Assembly: GCA_024400835.1 (NCBI GenBank)
Contig: JAKSMC010000011.1
Location: 572 to 64,571, forward strand
From: Bacteroidales bacterium
GTDB taxonomy: Bacteria; Bacteroidota; Bacteroidia; Bacteroidales; WCHB1-69
DNA length: 64,000 nucleotides
Direction: 5' to 3'
The position numbers and the translations under genes were made by a program. The notes beneath the pieces were generated by a model, which did no database searches, was not told the origin of the DNA, and saw only the letters and a list, made by a program, of their open reading frames with translations. Of the stretch, positions 33,079-63,312 are shown piece after piece; positions within the stretch are counted from its first letter, which is position 1, and every line of letters starts with the position of its first letter.

Positions 33079-33160
33079 TTGGGGTAAATATTTGATTTGT
33101 ATTATAGTGTGATAAAATAGTGTCTCGCCGAATCGTATCTTTCTTATATTAATTCGGCGG

Positions 33161-33168
33161 CAAAAATA
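33161..33168 (-). promoter_or_regulatory. Bacteroidota -7 box upstream of the second FISUMP gene
   Basis: The minus strand reads TATTTTTG, ~83 nt upstream of the ATG at 33078. Confidence 0.4.
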
Positions 33169-33239
33169 CAAAAAATATTTAATAATAAATCGAATTTGTA
33201 GAAAATATTAACTAATATTTAATCTTTAACATTTGTTTG

Positions 33240-42742: not shown

Positions 42743-42861
42743 AGTAAATCAAAACGGGCAAAGATAGTAAAAAAATCCAATTCTGGGAAATGGAATAAAA
42801 TTGCCCACGTTACAATGGTTCTATTTCACGTGTGATAGAAAATTCATAAGTATTAGAGCTA

Positions 42862-42992
42862 TTGTTGTCAATTGGATTTTGGAACTTGGAGTTTGGATTT
42901 TCTTTACTGTTTATTCTCAATTCGGTAAGCGGGTGCGAAGATAGGATTTTATTGGACAGGGGGGCTGCCAGAATTGCGGGGACATATACCAA
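42862..42992 (-). repeat. Cassette leader repeat L1, a cassette-less terminal copy abutting bamD
   Basis: The minus strand reads ...aaaatCCTATCTTCGCACCCGCTTaCCGAATTGAGAATAAACAGTAAAGAAAAtCCAAACtCCAAGTTCCAAAATCCAATTGACAAC..., then diverges. No RHS core follows. Confidence 0.8.
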
Positions 42993-42993
42993 A

Positions 42994-43461
42994 TCATTCG
43001 GAACAAGTCTTTTTTAAAACTTGATAATATGTATTAGTCATTCCTACTATTAAAAAATTATAATCTCCACCATAAAAAGGAGGAGGTGTCTTTAAGCAAA
43101 TAAAACTCGAAGAACCTGGAATAATAGTTAGAATTTTGTCAGGAACATTTTTAGGGAAAAGATAATATTTCCCATTAATTTTTTTATAACATCCGATATT
43201 TTGAATTATTTCATCATCAATAATAAGCGGTTTTATTTCTATGAAAAAATTATTTTTAGAAAAATCTGATAGAAACATATCAACTATAAAGAATTCATAT
43301 GGCGCATTTTTGAAACAATTATTTGTTGAAATCCCATATATGATTTTTTCAAGTTTACGGTCAATAAAATTCATTTCTGGAAGTACTGTGTACTTTTTTT
43401 CTTGTGCCATAGTATTTCCAATAGAAAGAATAAACAAAATAAAAAAATAGATTTTCTTCAT
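42994..43461 (-). CDS. Putative secreted immunity protein of cassette m4
   Basis: Overlaps the toxin stop by 4 nt. Signal peptide MKKIYFFILFILSIGNTMAQ. No recognisable domain. Confidence 0.55.
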   Translation of the reverse strand: MKKIYFFILFILSIGNTMAQEKKYTVLPEMNFIDRKLEKIIYGISTNNCFKNAPYEFFIVDMFLSDFSKNNFFIEIKPLIIDDEIIQNIGCYKKINGKYYLFPKNVPDKILTIIPGSSSFICLKTPPPFYGGDYNFLIVGMTNTYYQVLKKTCSE

Positions 43462-44360
43462 TGTTTTTTACTTATTATAACACTCCTACACATAAAATAT
43501 GAAAAATCACTTGGTAATGAATTCTGATTGTATTTAATATATTTCCCGTTTTTGGGAGTGTATATTTTAAAGAATGGCTGCCCTCCTCCATTTTTATTCG
43601 ATATTTTACAAAGATATTTGGCGACTGCAATATCTCCTCCAGGACTGGTAAGACCAGAAGGATACGGTGTATTGTTGGGGTGATTATGGATGCTGCCTCT
43701 AATAGTGTAACCGTACTTATATTTATTCTCTATCAGAAAGGTTGCGGCTTGATTCCGATCAATCTCATGAGAGGTAGAAATAACATTTAATCCATTTTCT
43801 CCAGATTCCCCTAAAAGTAATTGTGCCCACTCCACATTCGTGTTGTCAGAAAGAAATTCAAACAATTCCGATGCATTATTATCTCCTCGAACATTATACC
43901 AATCAAATTTTTTGTGGGCATTATCGGAATACTGGGACTTGAATTGTTCTATAGTCTGATATTTAAATGACAATTCTTTACCTTCTATTCTATTCCCATT
44001 TTTATCGACAATATAAAAAGCATCATGTTGATCTGTTTGAATATGATTTACAACTTTTCCCCAACGATTGATTTCCCACTCATCCTCCCCATTGGGATCA
44101 ACCACCATTATCGGATTATTACTACAATAAACATAGTTCGACTCATGGGGGCATTTGTCACTCATGGGATCCACACTAAGCCAAATGCTCAGGTCGCTGC
44201 TATAATACCTTGCGCCAAAATAGCTTAGCCCGGTTTCCGTGTCGCGCTCTTTTGCCGAAAAGGAGTAATTTAGGGTATAGGTAACAGGTAATAGGGAATA
44301 GGTGGCGGCGGAGGGCGCTGCTACGGAGGTGGGGCGATATGTACAGGCTGTTATTCTCAA
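43458..44360 (-). CDS. Orphan RHS-core-tail + JAB/JAMM-like metallopeptidase toxin module (m4)
   Basis: FSAKERDTETGLSYFGARYYSSDLSIWLSVDPMSDK...NNPIMVVDPNG followed by a tail with TSHE...GSIHNHPNNTPYPSGLTSPGGD (E, HxH, S, D). There is no in-frame ATG before the core; the ORF-track start is TTG. Confidence 0.6.
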   Translation of the reverse strand: MRITACTYRPTSVAAPSAATYSLLPVTYTLNYSFSAKERDTETGLSYFGARYYSSDLSIWLSVDPMSDKCPHESNYVYCSNNPIMVVDPNGEDEWEINRWGKVVNHIQTDQHDAFYIVDKNGNRIEGKELSFKYQTIEQFKSQYSDNAHKKFDWYNVRGDNNASELFEFLSDNTNVEWAQLLLGESGENGLNVISTSHEIDRNQAATFLIENKYKYGYTIRGSIHNHPNNTPYPSGLTSPGGDIAVAKYLCKISNKNGGGQPFFKIYTPKNGKYIKYNQNSLPSDFSYFMCRSVIISKKQ

Positions 44361-44425
44361 TTGTCAATTATCAATTCGGGAAGCGGGTGCGAAGAAAGGA
44401 AATTATTGGTAATAGTCTCCAATAT
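44341..44425 (-). repeat. Cassette leader repeat L2 (short subtype)
   Basis: The minus strand reads ccaataatttCCTtTCTTCGCACCCGCTTcCCGAATTGAtAATTGAcAATTGAGAATAACAG. It lacks the ~57-bp CCAAACCCCAAG...GACAACGAC block. Confidence 0.75.
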
Positions 44426-44440
44426 TTGAATTTCAAGAAA

Positions 44441-45073
44441 TCACCATGCTACGCACCAAAAAATGACATATTCATTGTTGGGATTAATAGCAACTCCAGA
44501 CCGATATCCGTGCCGTAAATGTGCTGGAAGCCATTGACGCTCGCAATTCCATTTGTCATTTAGCACCAGAGTGTTCCCCGATTTGATAACATAGATTGTA
44601 TAATCCGAGGACAAGCCTGTATTCGTCGTTGAATCAACAAACACACTATCTGATTTATTATCATCTAGTCTGTGGAATATTTTGAAATCGGGTATTATTG
44701 TGTTGATTTGTGCGTTAATATAACTGGAATCCAATTGAAATCTTTTATCAAAATCTCGGTCTTTCAAAATCACAAGTTCTGAAGAATCGTTCAATATTTG
44801 GATGGCATTATTTTCAGAAAATGTTTTTATGAATTCCACATCAAAATATTTTTTTGAGACGACTTTAATATATCTACAACAATTTGTGGGATTAGTGCAT
44901 CGTTCCGAGAGGTCAGACGGTATTAGCATAAAAGCACCTACTTCATTTGTCGGAAAAAAATAACAAATACTATCAGGAATCGGGTTTACATCAAAATGCA
45001 GTAAACACCTATTGTGAGATTGCGAACTGGCTGTAAGATTTACTAAAATAAGAAGCAAACAAGAAAATTTCAT
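44441..45073 (-). CDS. Extra orphan immunity-like secreted protein with no cognate toxin ORF
   Basis: Signal peptide MKFSCLLLILVNLTASSQS. It lies between the m3 immunity gene and leader L2. No domain recognised. Confidence 0.45.
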   Translation of the reverse strand: MKFSCLLLILVNLTASSQSHNRCLLHFDVNPIPDSICYFFPTNEVGAFMLIPSDLSERCTNPTNCCRYIKVVSKKYFDVEFIKTFSENNAIQILNDSSELVILKDRDFDKRFQLDSSYINAQINTIIPDFKIFHRLDDNKSDSVFVDSTTNTGLSSDYTIYVIKSGNTLVLNDKWNCERQWLPAHLRHGYRSGVAINPNNEYVIFWCVAW

Positions 45074-45264
45074 AATAACAAAACTACAATTAATACATCA
45101 GTTTAAGCGATTAGAGCATTTTACTAATAGTTTCTATTATATTAGGCATAGTCTGCTTCATTATATTCCTAAATTTCGCAGAGTTACTATTAGAGTATTC
45201 ATATTGTCTTATTTCATTCCATGTTGTTTTTCTAATAAGAGATTAAGAACAAGACATCATTGTT

Positions 45265-45726
45265 CTATTGGAAAATTTTACATAATTGTCCGATAGGGTC
45301 TTGCCCATTTTCTGATATAGTATCGGATGCAATAATTTCAGAGGATTGCAAATGGCCTTTTTTGGCCGCAATTAACAAATATTTTATAGCCAACTGTGCT
45401 GTCATAGAGTCTATTTGTCTAATGTCTGACAAATACGGAACGGTTAAACAGTCAAAAACATCAAAGTATGCTTGTGCGTAATCATACTTGTTGGCCATTA
45501 TCCATGCATATGATAATAATTCTTCATCACCGTATTCATAGTCCATTAGCAGAATTGAAAGGTCATCATAGGCGGAAGTGTCACCTGTCTCTACTATTTG
45601 CCGCTTTAGTTGAGATATGCTTTTTGTGGAACATTCCATAGGGTAGATCGTTTTGTCATCATACTTACAAGAATAAAACAAAATTGAAGTAGATATGATG
45701 ATACTGAAATAGATGTATTTTTTCAT
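45265..45726 (-). CDS. Putative immunity lipoprotein of cassette m3, helical and possibly Sel1/TPR-like
   Basis: 20 nt after the toxin stop. Lipobox ILFYSC. Helical repeat-like LAIKYLLIAAKKGHLQS. Confidence 0.5.
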   Translation of the reverse strand: MKKYIYFSIIISTSILFYSCKYDDKTIYPMECSTKSISQLKRQIVETGDTSAYDDLSILLMDYEYGDEELLSYAWIMANKYDYAQAYFDVFDCLTVPYLSDIRQIDSMTAQLAIKYLLIAAKKGHLQSSEIIASDTISENGQDPIGQLCKIFQ

Positions 45727-45745
45727 ATAACAATATTAAAATTAA

Positions 45746-46570
45746 TTAGTACAATAGTCTATCTAATACTGTAGGCTTTTCTTTGGGGCTCCAGTTCCCC
45801 TTAAAAGATTTCACTTCTTTCCCATTACGAAAAACCTTCCAATTCCCTGTGACGTTTGATCTCTCTTTGCTTTTAATATTACCATTATCATCTCTTTTAT
45901 ACTCATTGTCGCTGTCAGCATATTTAGCTTTATAGGTCCCTACTTGCCCCTCCTCATTAAAATACACTCTTTGGTCAGGTGCGACAACAGTAACATTTAA
46001 CTCTTTTGATACTTTTTCTGCAAAAGAATTGTCTCCTTCGCCAGTTCTACAAGAATGCAAGATGATAGTTGTTGCATCGTTTTCCTGTCTATTCTTCCAT
46101 ACATTGCTATATTTTGACAATAATTTTTCTAACTGCTGGGCTGTTCTCACTTGTTGCTTCCTACCATCAATGGTTACGATTAAACCTTTTGAAGATCCAT
46201 GCGCGAATATATGAATAGCACCGTCATCATTGTATTTTTCAGCTCCTGAAATAATTGCTTTGTCTTTATTCTTATCTAACCATATTAGTTTTTCTTCACC
46301 ATTGGGATCAATGAACTTCACCGGGTTGTCCGCGCAATAAACATACGCACACATCGACGGGTACTTGTCACTCATCGGGTCCACGCTCAACCAGATGCTC
46401 AGGTCACTGCTGTAATATCTTGCTCCAAAGTACGATAGCCCGGTTTCCGCGTCGCGTTCCTTGGCCGAAAAGGCGTAATTTAGGGAATAGGTAACAGGGT
46501 ATAGGGAATAGGTGGCGGCGGCGGGCGCTGCTGAGACGGTGGGGCGATATGTGCGGACTGTTATTCTCAA
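45746..46570 (-). CDS. Orphan RHS-core-tail + toxin with candidate His/Cys dyad (m3)
   Basis: Core FSAKERDAETGLSYFGARYYSSDLSIWLSVDPMSDKYPS...FIDPNG. Tail with AIHIFAHGS (46192-46217) and IILHSCRTG (46041-46066). No in-frame ATG before the core. Confidence 0.55.
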   Translation of the reverse strand: MRITVRTYRPTVSAAPAAATYSLYPVTYSLNYAFSAKERDAETGLSYFGARYYSSDLSIWLSVDPMSDKYPSMCAYVYCADNPVKFIDPNGEEKLIWLDKNKDKAIISGAEKYNDDGAIHIFAHGSSKGLIVTIDGRKQQVRTAQQLEKLLSKYSNVWKNRQENDATTIILHSCRTGEGDNSFAEKVSKELNVTVVAPDQRVYFNEEGQVGTYKAKYADSDNEYKRDDNGNIKSKERSNVTGNWKVFRNGKEVKSFKGNWSPKEKPTVLDRLLY

Positions 46571-46655
46571 TTCTCAATTCGGAAAAGCGGGTGCGAAGAT
46601 AGGAAATTATTAGATAGGGTTACTGTTCGAATTATGGGGACCATTGTAATAAATA
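46561..46655 (-). repeat. Cassette leader repeat L3 (short subtype)
   Basis: The minus strand reads aatggtccccataattcgaacag...taataatttCCTATCTTCGCACCCGCTTTTCCGAATTGAGAATTGAGAATAACAG. Confidence 0.8.
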
Positions 46656-46689
46656 TGTACTACATAACATAGTGTTTTAATCTGAAAAT

Positions 46690-47292
46690 TTATGGAAAGA
46701 ATGTTTTATATTTTACAATCTTATTGAATTTGTTTTTCTTGACCGGCATCTCTAATTTGAGTGCAGAATCTATAAGGCTATTCAACACGTTTGTGTCTCC
46801 TGGAGCTGCGTGTGTATATCCTACAACAAGATATTCAAACCCCCAAAAGCCAGCTCCTGTCACTGGATCCGGTTTCTCCAGATCATACCTCATACAATAT
46901 TTCCACAACGATGTATCACCACCTTTTTCATATATTCGGCCTTGCTTGTGAGATGAGATCGGCATTCCTTTTTTCAAGGAATCCTGTGCCTTTAATAGAT
47001 TGTTGTAAACTGGTCCAAAACAACAAACCGAGTCCCCATAGGCAGGACTCTCATCACTTATGTAAAAATAAGCATTGTTGTATGAAAAATAATAACTCGT
47101 AGAGCTTCCAATTATTAAATATTCTAATTTGCAATGTGGAGGTAACTTTACAAGATAAACAGGCGAAAAATATTCGGGCTTGTATAAAAAAGAGTCAAAT
47201 GCTCGATTTGTAGTGAGTCTCTTGATATGGCAACCATTTAGAATTACCATACAGCTAATTAGAACAATCAATAAGACCTTGTTAGAACTCAT
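46690..47292 (-). CDS. Putative immunity lipoprotein of cassette m2
   Basis: The ATG at 47292 overlaps the toxin stop by 11 nt. MSSNKVLLIVLISCMVILNGC lipobox. Confidence 0.55.
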   Translation of the reverse strand: MSSNKVLLIVLISCMVILNGCHIKRLTTNRAFDSFLYKPEYFSPVYLVKLPPHCKLEYLIIGSSTSYYFSYNNAYFYISDESPAYGDSVCCFGPVYNNLLKAQDSLKKGMPISSHKQGRIYEKGGDTSLWKYCMRYDLEKPDPVTGAGFWGFEYLVVGYTHAAPGDTNVLNSLIDSALKLEMPVKKNKFNKIVKYKTFFP

Positions 47293-48181
47293 AACTTTTG
47301 ATGTTAAAAGGTAAATACGGAACTCCATTTTGCAGCAAGGAAGAGGAACCTCCTCCCAAGAAATGCCCTTCTGAGGATGTCTGAAGCGAATAGTATGTCC
47401 GATATGGTAGTCCTAGCTCTTTTCTTATAAGGTTCTCTCTATAACAAGCAACCCATTCGCTTTTTTTAAGACCACCGTTCCATGTTGATTGATCCGTCCA
47501 TCCCCGTTCATCATCAAAAGCATGCGATAGCTCATGAGCTAAATCAATTGTCCCATTTGCTTCGCCAAAGGGTGATCCGGCAACTGGTAATCTTGTTCCA
47601 AATCTATTCCAAGTGATGGTGTTAGGTTCTTTTCTTTCGTAGCCACTTGCTCCTGCTCTGATCGTATATTGGGTTTCGGAATCTTGCAGATTGGTAATCA
47701 TTCGTTTTCCTTCTGTTGTTTTATTTATTTTATTCAACGATTTTCGAGCTCTCTCTACAAAACGATTCCGTTGACGATCACTAAGTGGATTCCCGTTCAC
47801 TAATGTTAAAGAGCCGTTTGGTTCGTATCTATATACGGAATTTTTCCACTCAATCAAGATCTCTTCCCCGTTAGGATCCACCAACTTCACCGGGTTGTTC
47901 GCGCAGTAAACATACGGACTCAGCGAAGGGTATTTGTCACTCATCGGGTCCACACTCAGCCAGATGCTCAGGTCGCTGCTGTAGTACCTTGCGCCAAAGT
48001 AGCTTAGCCCGGTTTCCACGTCGCGCTCTTTAGCCGAAAAGGCGAAATTCTCTGCAAAGTGAAGAGCGAAGAGGGAATAGTGAATAGTGGCTGGTGATGG
48101 CATGGCGTTAGGGGTTATGTTTTGGGGTGTGGTCTGCGGAGGCACATGATAGGAAAATTTCACATTATCATCTTCTCTCAA
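47282..48181 (-). CDS. Orphan RHS-core-tail + HExxH zinc-metallopeptidase toxin module (m2)
   Basis: Core FSAKERDVETGLSYFGARYYSSDLSIWLSVDPMSDKYPSLSPYVYCANNPVKLVDPNG. Tail with DLAHELSHAFD (47521-47545). An in-frame ATG exists at 48103; the ORF-track start at 48181 is TTG. Confidence 0.65.
   Translation of the reverse strand: MREDDNVKFSYHVPPQTTPQNITPNAMPSPATIHYSLFALHFAENFAFSAKERDVETGLSYFGARYYSSDLSIWLSVDPMSDKYPSLSPYVYCANNPVKLVDPNGEEILIEWKNSVYRYEPNGSLTLVNGNPLSDRQRNRFVERARKSLNKINKTTEGKRMITNLQDSETQYTIRAGASGYERKEPNTITWNRFGTRLPVAGSPFGEANGTIDLAHELSHAFDDERGWTDQSTWNGGLKKSEWVACYRENLIRKELGLPYRTYYSLQTSSEGHFLGGGSSSLLQNGVPYLPFNIKSYEF
48120..48181 (-). repeat. Cassette leader repeat L4, a variant that resembles L8
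   Basis: The minus strand reads aaAATTGAGAGAagatgataatGTGAAaTTTTCCTATCatgtGCCTCCGCA. Compare L8: AATTGAGAGAg...GTGAAtTTTTCCTATCTTCGCCTCCGCA. Confidence 0.6.
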
Positions 48182-48696
48182 TTTTGGACATCATATATTG
48201 ATTTGATTCTTTTTAATGCTTTACGACGGTTACCCATAGATTTATCATATTGAATCATTTTTACTACACCATTTCCACTCCAATCCACGTAGTAGTTCGT
48301 TTTTGATTTGTTAAATGTAGTGATATTGATTAGAACATCACCACTTAATAGAACATATTTCCAAAGGCTGATGTCAAAATAATATGTGGTTTTATAGAGG
48401 TTCCGTTGAGAATCTCTTTTAGAATCAGAATGGAATACGGTGTATCCAAGGCATATGTGTATAACTGCTGTGTCTGGTAATTCTATTAATGTGTTCATAC
48501 AGAAGTTTTCTATTCTAAAAGCACCTCTCAAATATGTGAACTCCAGAGTGTCTATGCCCGACACTGTTGCGGTCACGCTCAATTGTCGCGGTAGTGTTCC
48601 GTCAATCGCTATTATTGCTGGAATCACAGTTTGAGCACCAAGTATATTACAGAATAGCAATATTGGGAATATTAGCATCTTCCTTATAATTTTCAT
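48178..48696 (-). CDS. Putative secreted immunity protein of cassette m1
   Basis: 20 nt after the toxin stop. Signal peptide MKIIRKMLIFPILLFCNILGAQ. Confidence 0.55.
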   Translation of the reverse strand: MKIIRKMLIFPILLFCNILGAQTVIPAIIAIDGTLPRQLSVTATVSGIDTLEFTYLRGAFRIENFCMNTLIELPDTAVIHICLGYTVFHSDSKRDSQRNLYKTTYYFDISLWKYVLLSGDVLINITTFNKSKTNYYVDWSGNGVVKMIQYDKSMGNRRKALKRIKSIYDVQN

Positions 48697-48715
48697 TTCT
48701 CGCTATATGATAGGT

Positions 48716-49552
48716 TTACTTAATTATTCGACTAATATTTCTTAATTCATCAATTTTAATAGAACCTTTAATATTAGATTTTGAATCATAAAAAACAGCA
48801 TATGGAGTTCGTTCAATTGTGCCATCTTTTCCTACAATAACATTGATGAAATAATTTTTAAAAAGTGCTTCGTCGTATATTGATTGTTTATCAGGAACCT
48901 GATAACATTTTCTTCCTTCATCATCAGGACATTCAAACATATCTAATCTATGAGAATGAATACTGATATAGCCTTTTGAATCAATATCAATTGTTCCATC
49001 TTCGAAACCTGTAGGGTATCTTTTAAACAACAATGGGCGTCCTTTTTCTGAAAAAGTTGAAGCTTCTTCTCTACTGCCACCATTTAAAACAGTTCTATCA
49101 TAAACATTTACGATTTCACCCAATTGAAACTTATTTGTACTCCAATCTACCGTTACATCCGATAAGTTTGTTTGTTTTCCGTTGTTTCTCTCCAGTTTCT
49201 TTATACTTTCTTCATCAGAAACGAAATATACATTCCAATCATCATTTCCATCATCGCCTAACAATTTGCCATCCCAATCGTGAAATTCTCCAATTTCCAT
49301 CCCCTCAGGATCCACCAACTTCACCGGGTTATCCGCGCAATACGTGTACGGGCTCAAACTCGGATATTTGTCACTCATCGGATCGACACTCATCCAAATA
49401 CTCAAATCCGAGGAGTAATATCTTGCCCCAAAATATGATAGCCCTGTTTCCGCATCGCGCTCTTTTGCCGAAAAGGCGAAAGTTAGGGTATAGGGATTAG
49501 GGTATAGGGGATAGGAATCAGAGGGGCAATATGTTGGTTTGGTCGTTGTCAA
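48716..49552 (-). CDS. Orphan RHS-core-tail + C-terminal toxin of unassigned family (m1)
   Basis: (TTG)TTTKPTYCP... FSAKERDAETGLSYFGARYYSSDLSIWMSVDPMSDKYPSLSPYTYCADNPVKLVDPEG, then a ~195-aa tail. No in-frame ATG before the core. Confidence 0.55.
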   Translation of the reverse strand: MTTTKPTYCPSDSYPLYPNPYTLTFAFSAKERDAETGLSYFGARYYSSDLSIWMSVDPMSDKYPSLSPYTYCADNPVKLVDPEGMEIGEFHDWDGKLLGDDGNDDWNVYFVSDEESIKKLERNNGKQTNLSDVTVDWSTNKFQLGEIVNVYDRTVLNGGSREEASTFSEKGRPLLFKRYPTGFEDGTIDIDSKGYISIHSHRLDMFECPDDEGRKCYQVPDKQSIYDEALFKNYFINVIVGKDGTIERTPYAVFYDSKSNIKGSIKIDELRNISRIIK

Positions 49553-49690
49553 TTGGATTTTGGAACTTGGGGTTTGGAATTTCTTTACTGTTTATTCTCA
49601 ATTCGGAAAAGCGGGTGCGAAGATAGGATTTTTTTGGATAGCGGTGCTGTCGGAATTTTTGGGACCATTATAGTATAAATAGGATGAAAA
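49541..49690 (-). repeat. Cassette leader repeat L5 (long subtype), first unit of the minus array
   Basis: The minus strand reads aatggtcccaaaaattccgacagcaccgctatccaaaaaaatCCTATCTTCGCACCCGCTTTTCCGAATTGAGAATAAACAGTAAAGAAATTCCAAACCCCAAGTTCCAAAATCCAATTGACAACGACcAAACC. Confidence 0.8.
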
Positions 49691-49838
49691 AGCATCAAAA
49701 ACGGTCATTAGCTGCGGTCGTGTTCCATTTCCGGCACGCCAAACACCTTTCAAGCGGTTGATTTTATGTGGTTTGCAAAATAAAACAAAAAAATGCTGGC
49801 GCAGTAATGGCGCGACAGCAGAGATAAAAATAATTGTC

Positions 49839-49846
49839 TATCTTTG
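49839..49846 (+). promoter_or_regulatory. Consensus -7 box inside leader-like sequence L6, ahead of cassette p1
   Basis: tcTATCTTTGccccgc, 20 nt upstream of the ATG at 49866. It is related to the CCTATCTTCGCACCCGC leader block. Confidence 0.55.
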
Positions 49847-49865
49847 CCCCGCAAAACAAACAGGT

Positions 49866-50708
49866 ATGAATCAAGGTTTTACGCTCACATCTTCCACAAC
49901 ATTTTTCTCTTTTGCAGAGATTTACGCCTTCTCGGCCAAGGAGCGCGACGTGGAGACCGGGCTAAGCTACTTTGGCGCAAGGTATTATAGTAGTGATTTG
50001 AGCATCTGGCTGAGCGTGGACCCAATGAGTGACAAGTATCCGAGTATGAGTCCGTATGTGTATTGCGCGGACAACCCGGTGAAGTTGGTGGATCCTAACG
50101 GGGAAGACTATGAAGTTGTAGTGGATTACAAGACAATGACAATAACAATTCACGCAAATTTCTATACGTTGAAAAATGAGAAATGTTTTTTAGAAGAGGG
50201 ACTTAAACATTGGACTAATGAAGATGGGCACTTTGTTTATACGATTGGAAACGGAGAAAACACCCAAACTTACGACATAAAATTTGAATTTGACATTATT
50301 TCATGTAGTACCATAACCGAGATGTATGGTAAAGCAGAAGCAGACAAATGTGGGAATTCTTTTCTTATTAAAGATGGTGTTTACAATAACGGAACGGTTC
50401 CCATAAGAGGCGGATATGACTCAGGCAAAATTGAGATCAACAGCGATATGACTCTTTACTGCATAGACGACATGCTTCACGCCTCTGCTCACGAGCCTGG
50501 CCATTCGATGGGCATAGGAGAATTTGGGAAAGGATTAATGGAGTCAGGAGGATGGTGCTATGACATTTATGAAACACAAATTGCTTCTTCATTAAAATAT
50601 GCAGGATTCAATTGTATAAATGACAATATGACTTTCCCTGATAGACCATGCAATGTTTCCGTTAAAGGTAAGATGCCACAAGGAGAAGGTGTGGTGAAGA
50701 AAAAATAA
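49866..50708 (+). CDS. Orphan RHS-core-tail + HExxH zinc-metallopeptidase toxin module (p1)
   Basis: MNQGFTLTSSTTFFSFAEIYAFSAKERDVETGLSYFGARYYSSDLSIWLSVDPMSDKYPSMSPYVYCADNPVKLVDPNG. Tail with SAHEPGHSMG (50481-50513). Canonical ATG start. Confidence 0.7.
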   Translation: MNQGFTLTSSTTFFSFAEIYAFSAKERDVETGLSYFGARYYSSDLSIWLSVDPMSDKYPSMSPYVYCADNPVKLVDPNGEDYEVVVDYKTMTITIHANFYTLKNEKCFLEEGLKHWTNEDGHFVYTIGNGENTQTYDIKFEFDIISCSTITEMYGKAEADKCGNSFLIKDGVYNNGTVPIRGGYDSGKIEINSDMTLYCIDDMLHASAHEPGHSMGIGEFGKGLMESGGWCYDIYETQIASSLKYAGFNCINDNMTFPDRPCNVSVKGKMPQGEGVVKKK

Positions 50709-50750
50709 GATCGAAGATTGTTTTTTTGAGTTTTTAAATATCCATATTCT

Positions 50751-51386
50751 ATGAAACGATTTCTTTTGACTTTTTTATTGTTGTTTTCAACATCGTTCCT
50801 AATACAGGGACAGTCGTTAGCTCCCAACGACGGTGAAAGAATTTTTGTTTATGGAATCCGATATTTCACGGATCCCATTTTCGTAGGCCCATATCGTTGT
50901 CCCAGAAGATGTGTTATGGAAAAACAATATTTGGCGGACCAAGAAACAGACAAAGACTGTGATTACTATTTGAATTTGTGGGCATATCAGCCTGAGCAGT
51001 ATGGTATATTGGAAAATGGTCCTTTCATAAAAAATGTTTTGTTGCCTCAAATTTCAGATTCAACAATAATTAAAATCCTTTGGGAACAATTTGATTCGAC
51101 TGGCAAATTGAAATACGAAATCAACGACTTTCTTTTAAAACCCGATAAACCGTATAAAAATCTTTATTATTGTGATGTGTCCTGCCATCGTTTTTTGGCA
51201 ATTTTAGTTCCTGAAGAAGTCTTAATTAAGAATAGTCGATGGCAGGAAGATTCATCTCCTCAAAAAGAACGATTAAAACATTGGGGACTATATCTAAAAT
51301 GCCTTATTCCATTGCCTTATGGAGAGATAATTGATACTGAGTCTAGTACACAAAAAAACACCACTCCAACTAATAAATACAACTAA
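50751..51386 (+). CDS. Putative secreted immunity protein of cassette p1
   Basis: 43 nt after the toxin stop. Signal peptide MKRFLLTFLLLFSTSFLIQGQ. Confidence 0.55.
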   Translation: MKRFLLTFLLLFSTSFLIQGQSLAPNDGERIFVYGIRYFTDPIFVGPYRCPRRCVMEKQYLADQETDKDCDYYLNLWAYQPEQYGILENGPFIKNVLLPQISDSTIIKILWEQFDSTGKLKYEINDFLLKPDKPYKNLYYCDVSCHRFLAILVPEEVLIKNSRWQEDSSPQKERLKHWGLYLKCLIPLPYGEIIDTESSTQKNTTPTNKYN

Positions 51387-51404
51387 ACTCTTTCTTTAAT
51401 ACTC

Positions 51405-51482
51405 ACCCACAACCTTACCTATCACCCTAATAAAGAAATTCCAAAATCCAAATTGACAACGACTAAACCAACATATTGCCCC
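51405..51482 (+). repeat. Cassette leader repeat L7, degenerate on its 5' side
   Basis: ccttaCCTATCaCCCtaaTAAAGAAATTCCAAAATCCAAATTGACAACGACTAAACCAACATATTGCCCC. Confidence 0.7.
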
Positions 51483-52304
51483 GCCGCCACCTATTCCTTA
51501 AATTTCGCCTTTTCGGCAAAGGAGCGCGACGCGGAAACCGGGTTATCGTATTTTGGTTCAAGATATTATTCTTCTGAACTGAGTGTATGGTTGAGCGTGG
51601 ACCCGATGAGTGGGAAATATCCGTCAACTTCACCTTACGCATATTGCAGAAATAACCCAATAATCCTTTACGATCCTAATGGAATGTGTGACGATTGGAT
51701 CGAAAATCTGGAAACCGGAGGGATTGAGTGGAGACAAGATGTGCACAACGCTGAACAAACCCCAGATGGATATAAATATATTGGTCCAACCTATGAGTTG
51801 CCTAATGGGGCAGGATCTTTAATAAATGTCAAATATGATACTGGAGGGAACAGACAATTACCACCGAATCAACAAGAGTCCGCATCACCTGAGATTAACA
51901 TAGAGTTTGCCCCTAATTCGTCTGAAAATTATCAATGGTTACAAACGTACTCCACCAATTTTTTTTGTCATACTGGTAATGCAACAAATTTTGATTTAGT
52001 CGAAGACACATATACGGAACATGTTGATTGTGGCACACAAAGTACAAATCCTATTGAAGCATGTTATTTTAACCCGAATAATCCGCTTGTGCTATCAGAT
52101 ATTCCATTACGATACGCAGGAGTTGACAAAACAGTAGGAATGCATTTCACATCATCCGTAGTGAACCCTGAGACTCACACATCGATTGTTTCTATATCTT
52201 GGGGATTTTCCATTAATCCTTCAGGTTATGTTACTTTTGATAATTTACAAATAACAACAATTCCAAGCGAATTTCATAACAAAGCAATACAGAATGCCCA
52301 ATAA
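51453..52304 (+). CDS. Orphan RHS-core-tail + C-terminal toxin of unknown family (p2)
   Basis: (TTG)TTTKPTYCPAATYSLNFAFSAKERDAETGLSYFGSRYYSSELSVWLSVDPMSGKYPS...LYDPNG, then DDWIENLETGGIEW and a ~200-aa tail. No in-frame ATG before the core. Confidence 0.55.
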   Translation: MTTTKPTYCPAATYSLNFAFSAKERDAETGLSYFGSRYYSSELSVWLSVDPMSGKYPSTSPYAYCRNNPIILYDPNGMCDDWIENLETGGIEWRQDVHNAEQTPDGYKYIGPTYELPNGAGSLINVKYDTGGNRQLPPNQQESASPEINIEFAPNSSENYQWLQTYSTNFFCHTGNATNFDLVEDTYTEHVDCGTQSTNPIEACYFNPNNPLVLSDIPLRYAGVDKTVGMHFTSSVVNPETHTSIVSISWGFSINPSGYVTFDNLQITTIPSEFHNKAIQNAQ

Positions 52305-52806
52305 TACGTATAGATTTATTTTCTTGATTATTTGTAGTATATTTATTGTCAACACAACATATGCACAAAATAGGACAATCTATTTCGGCTATCCATATCA
52401 TATTTCTGAATTTGCCGATTCTTCTAAATTAATAATAGACAAACTACCATGGCACCCCAATGGCAGACTAGATGTGAACATGTCTATGATATATTTCAAT
52501 CAGTTAAAAGATTTTTTAGAAGACAAACGAGAGTATAAATGTACTATTCATGTATATTCGTGGATAGGACAAGATATCGAACGAAACTACCGTTTCTCGT
52601 GTTTTCAAGCAAGCGCCATAAAGGAGTTTTTTTTAGAGTGGGATTCTCTATTTTTCAATCAATACGTACTGAATATTATTCCACATGGCAGTGGTTTCTC
52701 GTTGTTTTCAAATATATGCCAATCAAAGAATCTAACAATCTCAGACTGTCTTGCAATGAAAGAATGCGTTATCATTGAACTTATCAAGTCTGAATATAGT
52801 TATTGA
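52294..52806 (+). CDS. Putative secreted immunity protein of cassette p2
   Basis: Overlaps the toxin stop by 11 nt. Signal peptide MPNNTYRFIFLIICSIFIVNTTYAQ. Confidence 0.55.
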   Translation: MPNNTYRFIFLIICSIFIVNTTYAQNRTIYFGYPYHISEFADSSKLIIDKLPWHPNGRLDVNMSMIYFNQLKDFLEDKREYKCTIHVYSWIGQDIERNYRFSCFQASAIKEFFLEWDSLFFNQYVLNIIPHGSGFSLFSNICQSKNLTISDCLAMKECVIIELIKSEYSY

Positions 52807-52860
52807 TTCCTCTATATGTAATGTGCCAAACAATTGAGAGAGAAAAAAACATTTGTGTGA

Positions 52861-52953
52861 ATTTTTCCTATCTTCGCCTCCGCATCACAAACGAAATCCA
52901 AAGTTCAAAATTCAAAATCCAAATTGACAACGACTAAACCAACATATTACCCA
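52861..52953 (+). repeat. Cassette leader repeat L8
   Basis: atttttCCTATCTTCGCCTCCGCAtcacaaacgaAATCCAAAGTTCAAAATTCAAAATCCAAATTGACAACGACTAAACCAACATATTaCCC. Confidence 0.75.
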
Positions 52954-53784
52954 AACACTGTCCGTTCACTGTTCACAGCTCACAGTTCACTGGCCGCCCG
53001 TTTCGCCTTTTCGGCTAAAGAGCGCGACACGGAGACAGGGCTAAGCTACTTTGGCGCAAGGTACTACAGCAGCGACCTGAGCATCTGGCTGGCTGTTGAC
53101 CCGATGAGTGGGAAATATCCGTCTTTGAGTCCGTATGTGTATTGCGCGGATAACCCGGTGAAGTTGGTGGATCCTAACGGGGAAGATTGGTTCGAGAATG
53201 AGTTAACTGGTGATGTCTATTATTGCAAAGATTACAGGAAAGGTGATGAAAAAGAGTTGAGCGGTAAAGGATGGAAATGGCTTGGCGAGAACAATATGTT
53301 TGGAAAGTCGGCAGATAATGTGATTGCCGCCAATATAAACAAAGCGGATGTATATACAGAAGATAATTCCTATGGCAGAGTTGGGTTTAGTGGCGCAAAT
53401 GCTAAGGAATTCATGTCAAAGATGGGGTATAAAAATGTTCCGACTCAAGTAATAGAATATGAGAAATCAAACATGCAAAGGACATGGACACCTGCAGGAA
53501 CACTATCTGTTGACATTGGCGGTTCATTTCAAATTATTGAAAAGGTTGGATATGTGAATAAGGATTTCAATGAGGTAAGTCGTAAACAAGTTGGCAGTAG
53601 TGTTCATTCAACAAGAAATGAATGCATTGAATCAGTTTCCAGACAAAGAATAGAATATGGAAAATCTTATTCCAAAATTGGTGATTTCTTAAATACTGTA
53701 TTTGGTGGTAATGTTAGTATGAAGAAAGCTGGGCCATGCACTCCTAATTGGAGATTAATTAACGAGTTTAAAAAAAGGAAGTAA
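52924..53784 (+). CDS. Orphan RHS-core-tail + C-terminal toxin of unknown family (p3)
   Basis: (TTG)TTTKPTYYP...FAFSAKERDTETGLSYFGARYYSSDLSIWLAVDPMSGKYPSLSPYVYCADNPVKLVDPNG, then EDWFENELTGDVYY and a ~200-aa tail. No in-frame ATG before the core. Confidence 0.55.
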   Translation: MTTTKPTYYPNTVRSLFTAHSSLAARFAFSAKERDTETGLSYFGARYYSSDLSIWLAVDPMSGKYPSLSPYVYCADNPVKLVDPNGEDWFENELTGDVYYCKDYRKGDEKELSGKGWKWLGENNMFGKSADNVIAANINKADVYTEDNSYGRVGFSGANAKEFMSKMGYKNVPTQVIEYEKSNMQRTWTPAGTLSVDIGGSFQIIEKVGYVNKDFNEVSRKQVGSSVHSTRNECIESVSRQRIEYGKSYSKIGDFLNTVFGGNVSMKKAGPCTPNWRLINEFKKRK

Positions 53785-53787
53785 AAA

Positions 53788-54024
53788 ATGGCAAAAGAAT
53801 ATAAAGGTGGGCATTATGTGTTTTTTGAATATATCGGTCTTTATATTCGATATTTTCTTTGTAAACTATTTAGACATGATAAAACATTGTCAGAATTATC
53901 AGGAGAGAAAGATTATCCGAATATAGATAAACGAGAGCGAATCATTTGCCTTCTTGTCGGAATATTCGCAATAGCCTTTCTGCTTTTGCTTGTTGTTGGA
54001 ATTGGCCATTACTATTCATATTAA
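53788..54024 (+). CDS. Putative small membrane immunity protein of cassette p3
   Basis: Starts 4 nt after the toxin stop. 78 aa with a C-terminal TM helix IICLLVGIFAIAFLLLLVVGIG. Confidence 0.45.
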   Translation: MAKEYKGGHYVFFEYIGLYIRYFLCKLFRHDKTLSELSGEKDYPNIDKRERIICLLVGIFAIAFLLLLVVGIGHYYSY

Positions 54025-54045
54025 TTAGTAATTCTTTTGAACTTC

Positions 54046-54188
54046 AATATTTTTCCTATCTTCGCACCCGCTTTTTCGAATTGAGAATTGAATAATTGAC
54101 AATTGAGAATAACAGCCCGTAAAGAAAATTCCAAACCCCAAGTTCCAAAATCCAATTGACAACGACTAAACCAACATATTGCCCCCAA
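54046..54188 (+). repeat. Cassette leader repeat L9, a cassette-less terminal copy abutting the MBOAT gene
   Basis: atttttCCTATCTTCGCACCCGCTTTTTCGAATTGAGAATTGAATAATTGACAATTGAGAATAACAGCCCGTAAAGAAAATTCCAAACCCCAAGTTCCAAAATCCAATTGACAACGACTAAACCAACATATTGCCCCC. No RHS core follows. Confidence 0.8.
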
Positions 54189-54255
54189 AGCTCTTCACTC
54201 TTAGCTCTTAACTCTTCGTTCGAGAGTTTTTTACCTATAGGAACAAGGAACGCGA

Positions 54256-56115
54256 TTAGAACTGGAAGTAGATGAAAGGCTGGAGGTCGGCGGTGACGAA
54301 TTGGTAGAGCACGAAGATGGTGGCCACAACGACAATGCCCATAAGCCAAATCGGCATCAAGGCGAAATTGACGCGGTACCAGCGCTTGAAATGTTCAGGC
54401 AGCCAGTGGATGATCATGCCCACCACGAAGAGGGTGAACACTGGCCAGTAGTTGCTCAGGATTTCGGGAATGGCGGCGGTGTTCCAGTGCCCGCCGATAC
54501 TGTTGACCATGGCTTTGGCCGTGTTCCAGGCCGTCTCGTTGGCAATGGCCGGGTCTAAGTTGGAACCCGAACGGAAGAACAAACGGGTGAAGGATATGAA
54601 CACGAAGGTCATGAATATGTTCCAACTGTTGTTGAGCCAGGGAATGTCGCGATTGGGCCAGATGGCGGAGTAGAGGCAGCGCACAAGCGCGCCGAAGAAG
54701 AATACGCCGGACCAAACCGTGAAAATCATCAGCACGGGACTCGGCCAGAAGTAGTTGCAGGCAAAGAATGCTGCAAAGATGAGCCCTGAGACGAGGCTGC
54801 GCAACCACTGCTTGAAGTGACGCCAGATCTTGAATCCCAAAATACCTACGCCGTTAAGCCCGCCCCAAATCATGAAGTTCCAGGAAGCACCGTGCCACAA
54901 GCCTCCCAGTAACATCGTGTTCAGCATATTGATGTTGGTGCTGATCTTAAGCCGCGCACGCTTGCTGGCCAGAGAGACTATCGTCAGGATGACGGCCAAA
55001 GCGGCAATCACACTGGCCACAACCACACTCTTGGAGAGCATAATGATGACGAATGCGATGAACAGAATGCAGAAGTAGGTGCCGAAGGTGGCATTGCGGT
55101 TGCCGCCTAACGGAATGTACAGATAGTCCTGCAGCCATTTGGAGAGGGAGATGTGCCATCTCTTCCAGAAGTTGCTCGGAGAGTCGGCCTTGTACGGGGA
55201 GTTGAAGTTCTTGGGCAGGTAGAAACCCATCAACATGGCCACGCCGATGGCGATGTCCGTGTAGCCCGAGAAGTCGGCATAGACTTGCAGTGAATAGATG
55301 AACAGCGCGGATAGGTTCTCGAATGCCGTGTATAACGACGGGTTGTTGAACACGCGGTCCACGAAGTTGACGGCTAAATAGTCGCTCATTATGAGTTTCT
55401 TGGCCAAGCCGTTCAGGATCCAGAAGACGGCGATGCCGAACTGTCGGCGGCTGAGGAAGAACTTCTTGTAGAGTTGCGGCACGAACTGGTCGGCGCGGAT
55501 AATCGGACCTGCCACGAGCTGTGGGAAGAAGCTGACGTAGAAGCCGAAGTCGAGCACATTGGAGACGTGCTTGATCTTCTTTTTGTAAACATCTACCAAA
55601 TAACTGATGTTCTGGAAGGTGTAGAACGAGATGCCGACGGGAAGCAGGATTTTGGATGCGTCGAAGTAGTTCTTGCCGGTGAGGTCGTTGGTCCACTGGG
55701 CCAGCCAGTTGATGACCTCGTATTTGCTGCCTACAATAGTATTATAGGCGTCGGTGAAGAAGTAGGCGTATTTGAAATAGAAGAGAACCAGCAGGTTGAC
55801 GACGACACCGAATATCATGTGGAATTTGCGGGCGCCCTGCCGTTTGGAATGGTCCATGAAGCAGCCGAGCAGGTAGTCTAAGATGGTGTCGAAGATGAGG
55901 ATGAGGACGAAGAGGCCGGAAGTCTTGTAGTAGAAGAAAATGCTGGCGAAGAACAGGAAGCCGTTGCGGAGCAGACGCTTGCTGTGGAAGAGGGAGAACA
56001 CGGCGAACACGAGGGCGAAGAATGCCCAGAAGTTGAACTGCGTGAACAGCAGGGGATATTGCTCGTTGAACGAGAATATGCTGGTTAGGAAAATCTTAAT
56101 GTTATCTAATGTCAT
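54256..56115 (-). CDS. MBOAT-family membrane O-acyltransferase (AlgI/PatA/DltB-like) with extended C-terminus
   Basis: Polytopic. FYTFQNISYLVDVY, FFPQLVAGPI, DFSGYTDIAIG, FWKRWHISLSKWLQDYLYIPLGGNR (conserved His). Confidence 0.85.
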   Translation of the reverse strand: MTLDNIKIFLTSIFSFNEQYPLLFTQFNFWAFFALVFAVFSLFHSKRLLRNGFLFFASIFFYYKTSGLFVLILIFDTILDYLLGCFMDHSKRQGARKFHMIFGVVVNLLVLFYFKYAYFFTDAYNTIVGSKYEVINWLAQWTNDLTGKNYFDASKILLPVGISFYTFQNISYLVDVYKKKIKHVSNVLDFGFYVSFFPQLVAGPIIRADQFVPQLYKKFFLSRRQFGIAVFWILNGLAKKLIMSDYLAVNFVDRVFNNPSLYTAFENLSALFIYSLQVYADFSGYTDIAIGVAMLMGFYLPKNFNSPYKADSPSNFWKRWHISLSKWLQDYLYIPLGGNRNATFGTYFCILFIAFVIIMLSKSVVVASVIAALAVILTIVSLASKRARLKISTNINMLNTMLLGGLWHGASWNFMIWGGLNGVGILGFKIWRHFKQWLRSLVSGLIFAAFFACNYFWPSPVLMIFTVWSGVFFFGALVRCLYSAIWPNRDIPWLNNSWNIFMTFVFISFTRLFFRSGSNLDPAIANETAWNTAKAMVNSIGGHWNTAAIPEILSNYWPVFTLFVVGMIIHWLPEHFKRWYRVNFALMPIWLMGIVVVATIFVLYQFVTADLQPFIYFQF

Positions 56116-63198: not shown

Positions 63199-63277
63199 TT
63201 CCACAATGTTACCTCATTGAACATTGATATTGATTTTTTGATGCTACAGATATTGAAGTCCTACGGACTTCGGGGTG

Positions 63278-63305
63278 CTTGAAACCTGAAACTTGAAACT
63301 TGAAA
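63278..63305 (+). repeat. Four tandem 7-nt units (CTTGAAA/CCTGAAA) just upstream of nadE
   Basis: cttgaaa cctgaaa cttgaaa cttgaaa, ending 8 nt before the ATG at 63313. Confidence 0.6.
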
Positions 63306-63312
63306 CCACATT

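Follow-up and report, generated by a model that had tools for sequence, protein, structure and literature searches.

A 64,000-nucleotide (nt) stretch of contig JAKSMC010000011.1 from a Bacteroidales bacterium (assembly GCA_024400835.1, positions 572 to 64,571 of the forward strand), referred to here as the window, contains an island of short Rhs toxin cassettes, each headed by an upstream sequence termed a leader. An earlier note on this DNA had described nine leaders and had suggested that they bound the cassettes as recombination sites. The question raised by this locus is whether the leaders serve to exchange the cassettes, to express them or to do neither. The answer that we favor, with moderate confidence, is that the island is the remnant of a recombinase-associated Rhs toxin-switching locus of Bacteroidales, comprising two divergent arrays of silent cassettes. 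The observations of the earlier note were partly confirmed by the present analysis, and its interpretation was partly supported.

Layout of the island

The island (43.0 to 54.2 kb) has a GC content of 30 to 41% versus ~50% in the flanks and is bordered by two minus-strand genes, bamD/YfiO (41816-42742) on one side and MBOAT (54256-56115) on the other. Its seven cassettes are divided between two divergent arms, which contain 9 and 6 co-oriented open reading frames (ORFs); C2 to C5 are on the minus strand and C6 to C8 on the plus strand, and nine leader positions (L1 to L9) lie between and around the cassettes. Each cassette consists of an Rhs C-terminal segment, termed the tail, followed by an unrelated toxin domain and then by one or two small immunity-like ORFs. 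The tail corresponds to the final ~62 codons of the RHS-associated core, ..(Y/F)AFSAKERDxETGLSYFGARYYSSDLSIWLSVDPMSDKYP..DPNGE, and was matched to positions 14 to 75 of the 76 in the TIGR03696 model; the motif ..VDPMSDKYP..DPNGE, of the DPxG type, was present in 7/7 cassettes. As had been claimed, the toxin domains were unlike one another, with Pfam matches to Toxin-JAB1 and Peptidase_M91 and several domains without a match. The immunity ORFs had no Pfam matches. Neither a full-length Rhs gene nor an Rhs core was present in the window. The absence of a nearby recombinase, also claimed previously, was borne out by a tblastn search of the 64 kb with the array-associated recombinase described below and by Pfam analysis of the neighboring genes.

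Leader plan in related loci

A protein search with the N terminus of C5 as the query detected hundreds of short Rhs-tail ORFs, with recurrent N-terminal types, in metagenome-assembled genomes (MAGs) of Bacteroidales. A scan of metagenome contigs with an alignment of tails yielded 78 loci, mostly of rumen or gut type judging by the contig names (contigs and metagenome loci are denoted by three-digit L numbers). These loci contained 196 tails, with 40 attached to a true core and ~150 located behind leaders. The information content rose from ~0.4 bits to between 1.3 and 2.0 bits at a point precisely 10 nt upstream of the Ser codon in SAKE, indicating that the leader/tail junction is at the identical nucleotide everywhere.

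A single plan was detected in ~125 distinct leaders despite mostly unalignable sequences. From the 5' end, this plan comprises a 5' element (..CCCCAAAATTTCGGACAGCA..), a box with the consensus (C/T)GTAnnTT(T/C)GC, a short A-rich stretch, an ATG opening the peptide M-x4-5-[TP]-Y-x-P (DNA (A/C)CATAT(C/T)GCCC), variable modules and four to six degenerate heptamers of the type (A/C)A(C/T)TNNN ending in AAYTGG, after which the tail begins. The [TP]-Y-x-P codons varied at synonymous positions. A box ended 8 to 45 nt upstream of 48/122 candidate leader starts, and in 47/48 of these the end of the box was 15 to 21 nt before the ATG, versus a control rate of 2.7% at random positions; 23 boxes had TTTG and 25 had TTCG. 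In its fixed spacing to the ATG, the box of the relatives looks like a promoter element, and the combination of box, start codon and conserved short peptide suggests autonomous expression of each cassette, with immunity kept on.

Primary-sigma promoters of Bacteroidota reportedly have TAnnTTTG at -7 and TTTG at -33, as Bayley et al. are said to have described in 2000. The leader boxes resemble the -7 element as a sequence match, with a perfect copy in L6, TATCTTCG in other window leaders and a nearly even division between the two variants in the relatives. In contrast, active promoters do not usually have the T-to-C variant, a clear -33 element was not detected, and a sigma-70 promoter scan yielded nothing above chance. 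The extended box consensus also resembles the core-site motif of IntDOT of CTnDOT, GTANNTTTGC.

The possibility that the leader is the 5' end of a full-length rhs gene, which would make the orphans internally deleted genes, was rejected because full-length genes (2800 to 2900 amino acids [aa] before the tail) begin with a signal-anchor sequence, MRQYFLMIIAG.. or MKQYLPTIIAV.., and both their starts and their upstream regions are unrelated to the leaders. Heptamer tracts of the relatives were also located after immunity stop codons and upstream of full-length rhs starts. The layout (leader-toxin-immunity)n-leader, previously proposed from the window, proved to be systematic, as a leader without a tail closes the array in five other loci.

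The 5' part of the leader (box, ATG and TYxP) was also fused to longer core fragments in L179 (248 aa, from 9316), L191 (229 aa, from 519) and L136 (163 aa, from ~1600, as in L143). With a further case in L156 (8534-10834), these fragments range from 163 to 506 aa, indicating that leader-core joints can form at other core positions. A separate observation concerns the GC-rich relatives (L131, L133, L146, L177, L188 and others), whose leaders contain several GC hairpins that are small and perfect (AATCCCCTCACGGGGATT, AGCCCCTGAAGGGGCT, TGTCCCTGCGGGACA), together with a GATACGCGGAGAT motif that recurs. Such features look like repetitive extragenic palindromic (REP) elements and are absent from the AT-rich leaders of the window.

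Recombinase beside the head leader

Clustering of ORFs over the 78 loci detected a single recurrent neighbor family, an Xer-like tyrosine recombinase of 373 to 374 aa with a Phage_integrase domain (8e-23). This gene is divergent from, and ~200 to 300 nt away from, a head leader of the MNQ type (the L6 type) in six metagenome loci (L131, L153, L156, L177, L187 and L202), and the same pairing was found in L211 and L226 to L230. The position and orientation of the recombinase relative to the head leader were fixed across loci of only 60 to 100% identity. These homologous arrays supply the co-occurrence with a tyrosine recombinase or full-length rhs in other Bacteroidales that the earlier note had envisaged.

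Between recombinase and head leader is a conserved intergenic region, in which ATTGTATATATA and a pair of TGGCGCA repeats are followed by an A-run, the -7 box and the ATG. Roughly the last 170 nt of this region are retained in the window (49691-49866, including the two TGGCGC copies at 49797-49813), which has lost the recombinase gene. Two TGGCGC(A) direct repeats, 11 nt apart, are located upstream of the putative head promoter in every recombinase-linked head region, with a second pair further upstream there; the recombinase or a regulator may bind to these repeats.

Homologues of the recombinase at 71 to 76% identity were found in a constant locus, which reads orphan cassettes and head leader (both leftward), recombinase (rightward), a LytTR regulator (leftward) and then, all rightward, a protein of 149 to 163 aa, a DUF8202 protein with a type IX secretion system (T9SS) tail and an Rhs protein of 2850 to 3060 aa. 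The operon upstream of full-length rhs (L211, 2580-6076; L226, 11305-14761) has a divergent regulator with LytTR and helix-turn-helix features, and its DUF8202 protein is of ~520 aa with a C-terminal T9SS sorting domain. This operon hints at how these Rhs proteins might be regulated or exported.

Rearrangements between near-identical contigs

Positions 1 to 7286 of L131 correspond to positions 7286 to 1 of L135, inverted and at 100% identity, and this segment is the first 7 kb of the Rhs gene. Positions 10000 to 20191 of L131 match positions 8881 to 19073 of L135 directly (99.99% identity). In L135, the Rhs core is joined to the shared tail array. In L131, the core points away and is followed by a DUF8202-type gene, the recombinase and the head leader, with the head leader joined to the array shared with L135; the recombinase is inside the segment that inverts. 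These arrangements are the two states that would be expected if a segment with the core at one end, the head leader at the other and the recombinase between them were to invert at the core/tail and leader/tail junctions. The same kind of orientation difference, relative to a common array and flank, was detected between L156 and L177. Inversion by oppositely oriented copies, raised as a possibility in the earlier note, has thus left its expected pattern in the relatives.

A second type of rearrangement was observed in L226, L227 (= L229) and L228, which are from different samples. These contigs exhibit 99.7 to 100% identity over 11.6 kb from the recombinase to Rhs and have an identical head leader, yet three different tails and toxins are located behind this one leader. 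Identity was 400/400 upstream and 14/14 in TACACCTTCTCCGC and was 78 to 80% over the 46 nt that follow. Comparison of loci gave twelve more homology breakpoints at -11 to +3 from the Ser codon; across these, a given tail and toxin are attached to a core in one locus but to a leader elsewhere, or else to leaders of two kinds. The previous suggestion of cassettes bounded by recombination sites was upheld to the extent that the cassettes are bounded by junctions, while the apparent exchange point had to be moved from the box to the leader/tail boundary, within the ~14 nt that open the tail. In L226 itself (9513-9709), the head leader is followed by a tail with an ORF of only 60 aa, and the next tail, of a Toxin-JAB1 cassette, is ~1.1 kb further on; this head cassette looks truncated.

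Sister strains

Sister strains of the window were recognized as contigs encoding an identical BamD protein. L119, L121 and L123 have L1 beside bamD, with 98.7% identity to the window, and carry different cassettes past the 5' edge of this leader (42983). A true Rhs core (..HYLPWGEDFVDQRLTSWSARYAFSAKERD; 668 aa or longer) continues directly into the C5 tail and toxin in L119, with 96% identity over window positions 47861 to 49481. The homology ends at 49478-49481, which is the leader/tail junction, indicating that L5 sits in the place occupied by the Rhs core in L119. For the regions upstream of C6 and beyond L1, the sister-strain contigs found all broke at tails or leaders. The MBOAT protein was on record only in GCA_024500545.1. 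In two other sister contigs, L120 (1-3064) and L128 (1-2925), the island is replaced by a gene for a T9SS-type sorted protein of at least 1020 aa directly upstream of bamD; this gene is absent from the window, and homology to the window ends at 42796.

Leaders and cassettes of the window

Repetition of the leaders within the window was readily detected. The 17-mer box CCTATCTTCGCMYCCGC, with up to two mismatches, had six matches in 64 kb versus 0.07 expected by chance, exclusively in L1, L2, L3, L5, L8 and L9 and all in the orientation of the cassettes. A 37-mer, block B, had four matches (L5, L7, L8 and L9) versus 0 expected; block B of L1 ends early, after TTGACAAC, giving four to five copies. 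The claim of nine copies was, however, too simple, as L6 is a distinct head element that is conserved in other genomes rather than a copy of the other leaders and L7 has no box. The mosaic structure was confirmed, with block A occurring with or without block B. The ~57-bp indel said to separate L2 and L3 from L5 and L9 is the clean absence of block B from L2 and L3, and the block said to be common to L4 and L8 was recovered as a variant box, TTTTCCTATC(AT/TT)..CCTCCGCA. Matches to TAnnTTTG were also as described, being perfect in L6, where the box is 19 nt before the ATG, and having one mismatch in L1, L3, L5, L8 and L9.

The leaders had been considered to be non-coding, with no frame kept open. 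This holds for the box region, which is clearly non-coding because its frame differs between L4 and L8 and in-frame stop codons follow the box in C2, C3 and C5; it does not hold for the 3' part of the leader, which is contiguous and in frame with the Rhs tail in 7/7 cassettes. Within the window leaders, TTGACAACGACTAAACCAACATATTGCCCC and TTGAGAATAACAGTCCGCACATATCGCCCC are the counterpart of the M-x4-5-[TP]-Y-x-P start region, with TTG in the window where the relatives use ATG. L3 is the window leader nearest to the canonical plan. A 7-nt periodicity was detected across the leaders, with a self-match at lag 7 of 0.372 versus 0.273 in shuffles (z = 8.4) and z-scores of 6.6 at lag 14 and 4.7 at lag 21. 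The sequence of the heptamer units differed from copy to copy while the period was constant. Both L1 and L9 had been described as ends without cassettes: L1 has no tail, whereas L9 retains a decayed tail start that abuts the MBOAT stop codon (54256-54258).

Two pattern scans were performed with the window's own leader sequences. A 17-nt degenerate box pattern, which is too short for this use, gave 118 chance matches in unrelated phyla in a 596-Gb genome collection, with 0 accompanied by other leader motifs. The exact pattern TCTTCGCACCCKCTTN{1,3}CGAATTGA gave 0 matches in the metagenomes, indicating that the window's own leader sequence is species specific. Coordinates of the leaders and cassettes are listed in Table 1.

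Table 1. Leaders and cassettes of the island, in window positions
Feature	Position	Strand	Content
L1, terminal leader of minus arm	42862-42983	-	5' element GTCCCC..AATTCTGGCAG; box TATCTTCG at 42936-42943; (AATTGAG)-type tract; shortened block B with TTGACAAC at 42864-42871; no tail after
Cassette C2	42994-44267	-	Tail 44083-44267 (TIGR03696 positions 15-75); Toxin-JAB1 C-terminal domain in ORF 43458-44360; 155-aa immunity-like ORF 42994-43461
L2	44268-44440	-	Degenerate box CCTTTCTTCGC; (AATTGAN)n; TTG start region ..ACATATCGCCCC; (CCTATNC)n heptamers; no block B
Cassette C3	44441-46477	-	Tail 46293-46477; toxin ORF 45746-46570; two small downstream ORFs, 45265-45726 and 44441-45073
L3	46478-46689	-	5' element; box TATCTTCG at 46594-46601; 16 nt and then TTGAGAATAACAGTCCGCACATATCGCCCC (MRITVRTYRP); heptamer tract
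Cassette C4	46690-48046	-	Tail 47862-48046; Peptidase_M91 toxin ORF 47282-48181; 212-aa immunity-like ORF 46690-47328
L4	48047-48177	-	Variant box TTTTCCTATCATGTGCCTCCGCAG; (CNCTNTT)n heptamers; ORF reads through, in a frame other than that in L8
Cassette C5, head of minus arm	48178-49480	-	Tail 49296-49480; toxin ORF 48716-49552; 172-aa immunity-like ORF 48178-48696
L5, full leader	49481-49690	-	5' element; box 49618-49625; (AATTGAG); block B with TTGACAAC at 49545-49552; heptamers
L6, head region	49691-49922	+	TGGCGC direct repeats 49797-49802 and 49808-49813; A-run; perfect -7 box TATCTTTG at 49839-49846; ATG 49866; peptide MNQGFTLTSSTTFFSFAEIY
Cassette C6	49923-51386	+	Tail 49923-50107; toxin end 50708; 211-aa immunity-like ORF 50751-51386
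L7	51387-51503	+	Block B alone (TTGACAAC at 51453); no box
Cassette C7	51504-52806	+	Tail; toxin ORF 51453-52304; 170-aa immunity-like ORF 52294-52806
L8	52807-53001	+	Variant box CCTATCTTCGCCTCCGC at 52867-52883; block B (TTGACAAC at 52924); (CNGTTCA)n heptamers
Cassette C8	53002-54024	+	Tail; toxin ORF 52924-53784; 78-aa membrane-type immunity-like ORF 53788-54024
L9, terminal leader of plus arm	54025-54255	+	Box 54057-54064; (AATTGAN)n; block B; (NNCTCTT)n heptamers; ~28-nt decayed tail start

Three further features of the window were recorded. Cassette C3 is followed by two small ORFs (153 and 210 aa; 44441-45726) rather than one, and these may be two immunity genes or may include the leftover immunity gene of a lost toxin. 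A heptanucleotide tract, (CTTGAAA/TTGAAAC) repeated four to five times, is present in a convergent intergenic region outside the island (63261-63310); apart from the tracts of the island, it is the only stringent one of period 7 in the window. At 28906-33171, 10 kb from the island, the window encodes a protein of 1421 aa with a Fib_succ_major domain at its C terminus, and the length of this protein is 1340 to 1390 aa in sister contigs.

Proposed explanation and its rivals

We propose that the leader is a modular, mostly non-coding head composed of a short 5' element, a -7-type box TAnnTT(T/C)G, a short unstructured stretch rich in A and C, a start codon that opens a brief conserved peptide, degenerate 7-nt repeats and a precise tail junction. 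Such a leader would give each parked cassette its own transcription and translation start, so that the immunity gene, along with a truncated and undeliverable toxin, would remain expressed while the cassette is off the Rhs core. At the same time, the leader would supply the non-conserved side of a recombination site. The conserved half of this site would be formed by the ~14 nt that open the tail, T(A/T)C(A/G)CCTTYTC(C/G)GC, a sequence that is also present at the core/tail boundary of full-length rhs. In complete loci, the Xer-like tyrosine recombinase beside the L6-type head leader is predicted to exchange tails between leaders and the ~3000-aa Rhs core, with inversion between sites in opposite arms and deletion or insertion between sites in the same arm, and the outcome would be a change of the toxin carried by the Rhs protein. 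Site-specific exchange is favored because the recombinase is fixed beside the head leader, is inside the invertible segment and is associated with a junction resolved to 14 nt. The window would represent a state in which core and recombinase are missing, with L5 in the place of the core and L1 and L9 as terminal sites without cassettes. The absence of a recombinase and of a full-length Rhs gene implies that the array is either a remnant or acted on in trans; further marks of a remnant are the TTG starts, the TTCG boxes and the truncation of L1 and L9.

A wider reading is a real possibility but one that we hold more tentatively than that of a remnant. It states that, in gut and rumen Bacteroidales, an Rhs protein of ~3000 aa has its C-terminal toxin, together with the immunity gene linked to it, switched by a dedicated Xer-like tyrosine recombinase through site-specific inversion and cassette exchange at a ~14-bp core/tail site, with silent cassettes located behind purpose-built leaders that keep immunity expressed. 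The heptamer tracts, which flank every junction, would then be footprints of a 7-bp staggered strand exchange, and the whole would be a toxin shufflon and immunity bank, possibly a toxin-bearing sister of the recombinase-associated acquired interbacterial defense (rAID) systems. The stagger of several tyrosine recombinases, like the overlap region of shufflons, is 7 bp. The 7-nt repeat also reads as the same peptide in all three frames.

Several observations weigh against the explanation of a remnant toxin-switching locus. Nothing in the window itself shows activity, as there is no recombinase or Rhs core within the 64 kb. The internal leaders of the window are off-plan, with TTG for ATG, TTCG for TTTG and no box in L7, and the gap from box to start is 65 to 100 nt in L1, L5 and L9 through block B and extra heptamers. 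The relatives of the recombinase at 44 to 48% identity (P0354, P0307 and P0328) were all prophage integrases, indicating that the array-linked clade is narrow; a link from the recombinase to rAID-1 systems through these distant homologues was, accordingly, rejected. Breakpoints also cluster at the 3' end of the tail (+109 to +178), as expected from homologous recombination inside the ~190-nt tail. A conserved left arm or an inverted-repeat core site was not definable. At third codon positions, the tail start was not clearly more conserved than the rest of the tail, and a DNA-level site deduced from synonymous-site conservation was rejected on this basis. Finally, the rearrangements were all detected in metagenome contigs, in which repeats could be assembled in error, but the 14 nt in question are far shorter than the k of 141 used for these contigs.

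The tail 3' breakpoints, the lack of a definable core site and the restriction of the rearrangements to metagenomes make RecA-type recombination within tails a live rival, although we judge it unlikely to be the whole explanation. In this alternative, the ~190-nt tail on the left of a module and the next leader on the right act as homology arms. RecA crossovers or gene conversion, including after uptake of DNA from relatives, replace, duplicate, delete or invert modules, and the recombinase, as the integrase of the island or of some neighboring element, is not involved. Breakpoints at both ends of the tail, the stretch shared with L119, which extends from the end of one tail to the start of another, and the persistence of the window array without a recombinase all fit with homologous recombination. 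Terminal leaders would be expected if a module was always acquired with its right-hand arm, and a recombinase whose relatives at <50% identity are prophage integrases could be a bystander. The precision of the switch in L226, L227 and L228 argues otherwise, since spread crossovers would leave variable lengths of shared leader-proximal tail, whereas identity drops from 400/400 to 78 to 80% within 14 nt of the junction. Tails differ by 10 to 25% and are, therefore, poor RecA substrates, and a bystander integrase does not account for the fixed placement of the recombinase relative to the head leader or its presence in the inverting segment.

It is less probable again that the leaders are expression modules and nothing more. 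On this account they are promoter, 5' untranslated region and start units selected to express orphan immunity genes and cytoplasmic truncated toxins as addiction modules, and the junction reflects descent from one ancestral leader-tail fusion. Much of the leader plan fits this alternative, including the fixed box-ATG spacing, the synonymous variation in the [TP]-Y-x-P codons, the presence of the leader 5' part on core fragments that begin at other core positions (L179, L191 and L136) and a G-poor, unstructured composition that would suit Bacteroidota translation starts. A terminator scan detected none above chance between the cassettes, and internal promoters reportedly drive Rhs toxin/immunity pairs as toxin-antitoxin modules in Salmonella, as Starsta et al. 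are said to have found in 2020. An expression module does not, however, explain identical leaders on different tails, the location of one tail behind a leader in one contig and on the core in another or terminal leaders without cassettes, and the window leaders mostly lack an ATG and a perfect box.

We consider it very doubtful that the leaders are functionless debris, that is, decaying former coding sequence (core fragments or N termini) and slippage-prone simple sequence carried passively through cassette duplication. One leader family of the relatives (MEYKHDSRKNCAS..) does resemble a decayed YxYDSWNRI core segment, the heptamer units are unlike in every copy, and a heptamer tract is present outside the island. 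Debris would not be expected to follow one ordered plan with fixed spacing in ~125 distinct leaders from genomes whose leaders are otherwise unalignable, nor to be conserved, as L1 is, between strains with differing neighboring cassettes.

The reading that we find barely credible is that of integron-type cassettes, in which the leader is an attC-like site folding as single-stranded DNA, recognized by an integron-type integrase and with an attI near the head: the divergent recombinase, the head site with TGGCGC direct repeats and a putative promoter (compare Pc), the co-oriented cassettes and the site after the last cassette recall integrons, but all nine leaders folded no better than shuffles (z-scores of -1.1 to +1.4), are G-poor direct-repeat tracts rather than imperfect palindromes and had 0 Rfam matches at E values up to 1, the cassettes have promoter-like boxes of their own, no IntI was found in the window and the recombinase of the relatives scored 33 bits against a cutoff of 265 on the integron-integrase model TIGR02249. 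The resemblance to attC sites put forward in the earlier note, and any other structured element, were rejected on the folding and Rfam results.

Comparison with known systems

The preferred reading of a remnant toxin-switching locus can be set against several known systems. Like the rhs orphans of Enterobacteria, the window cassettes combine a core fragment ending in DPxG with a variable toxin and an immunity gene in tandem and appear recombinable onto a main gene. The enterobacterial modules, C-terminal toxin/immunity pairs downstream of the main rhs genes, were reportedly described by Jackson et al. in 2009 and Koskiniemi et al. in 2014. A location downstream of a full-length rhs gene was found in L119 and in relatives of the array but not in the window. 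The enterobacterial orphans differ in that they are not known to have a conserved upstream leader, a fixed 5' truncation point or a dedicated recombinase, and switching there is by RecA-type recombination in core homology.

The rAID-1 systems are arrays of orphan immunity genes in Bacteroidales that are headed by an Xer-like tyrosine recombinase and have, downstream of it, at least two genes in the same direction with a GC content of 41% or less, as well as conserved repetitive intergenic sequences; their content differs among strains (Ross et al., 2019; 10.1101/471110; PMC12247911). The earlier note had suggested a resemblance to these systems. The low-GC, co-oriented short genes and repeated intergenic sequence of the window agree with it, and the Xer-like recombinase at the head is present in the relatives and missing from the window. 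In contrast to rAID-1, each immunity gene is paired here with an Rhs-tail/toxin gene, and complete loci of the window type adjoin a full-length rhs operon. Polyimmunity loci, the class that includes rAID-1, are arrays of immunity genes uninterrupted by toxin genes or cassettes (Zhang et al., 2012; PMC3482391), whereas each immunity-like ORF in the window follows an Rhs-tail/toxin ORF. Membership of the window array in rAID-1 could not be shown.

In shufflons, such as R64 with Rci and sfx, a tyrosine recombinase is located beside alternative 3' segments in both orientations, and inversion at asymmetric sites, with one arm conserved, fuses a constant 5' gene body to different C-terminal segments (PMC11852207, PMC5430464). 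The relatives have an adjacent recombinase and, between contigs, opposite orientations or alternative tails (L131/L135, L156/L177 and L226 to L228), a pattern that may reflect such a system, with putative sites that are asymmetric and conserved on the tail side alone; the window has cassettes in both orientations and is missing the constant gene body and recombinase. Differences are that, in place of pilus tips, the cargo consists of toxin/immunity pairs borne on an Rhs protein of ~3000 aa, that the parked segments have their own putative expression leaders and that the recombinase is Xer-like, not Rci-like. A limited literature search, which is not proof of novelty, found no description of recombinase-linked Rhs-tail inversion, of an Rhs shufflon or of these leaders.

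Meaning for Bacteroidales

The interest of this island lies less in the degenerate copy present in the window than in the mechanism to which it points, for which the leader/tail junction is a concrete candidate recombination site and the neighboring gene of the relatives a candidate enzyme. For annotation, the result shows that short ORFs labeled "RHS repeat-associated core domain", which number in the hundreds in MAGs of Bacteroidales, are parked cassettes of a defined architecture. Independent promoter activity of the leaders, if present, would account for the protection of the cell by parked immunity genes. Should tails be flipped or exchanged by the recombinase, the identity of the Rhs toxin would be phase variable rather than fixed, and this would change how strain competition and immunity "banks" in the gut and rumen are modeled.

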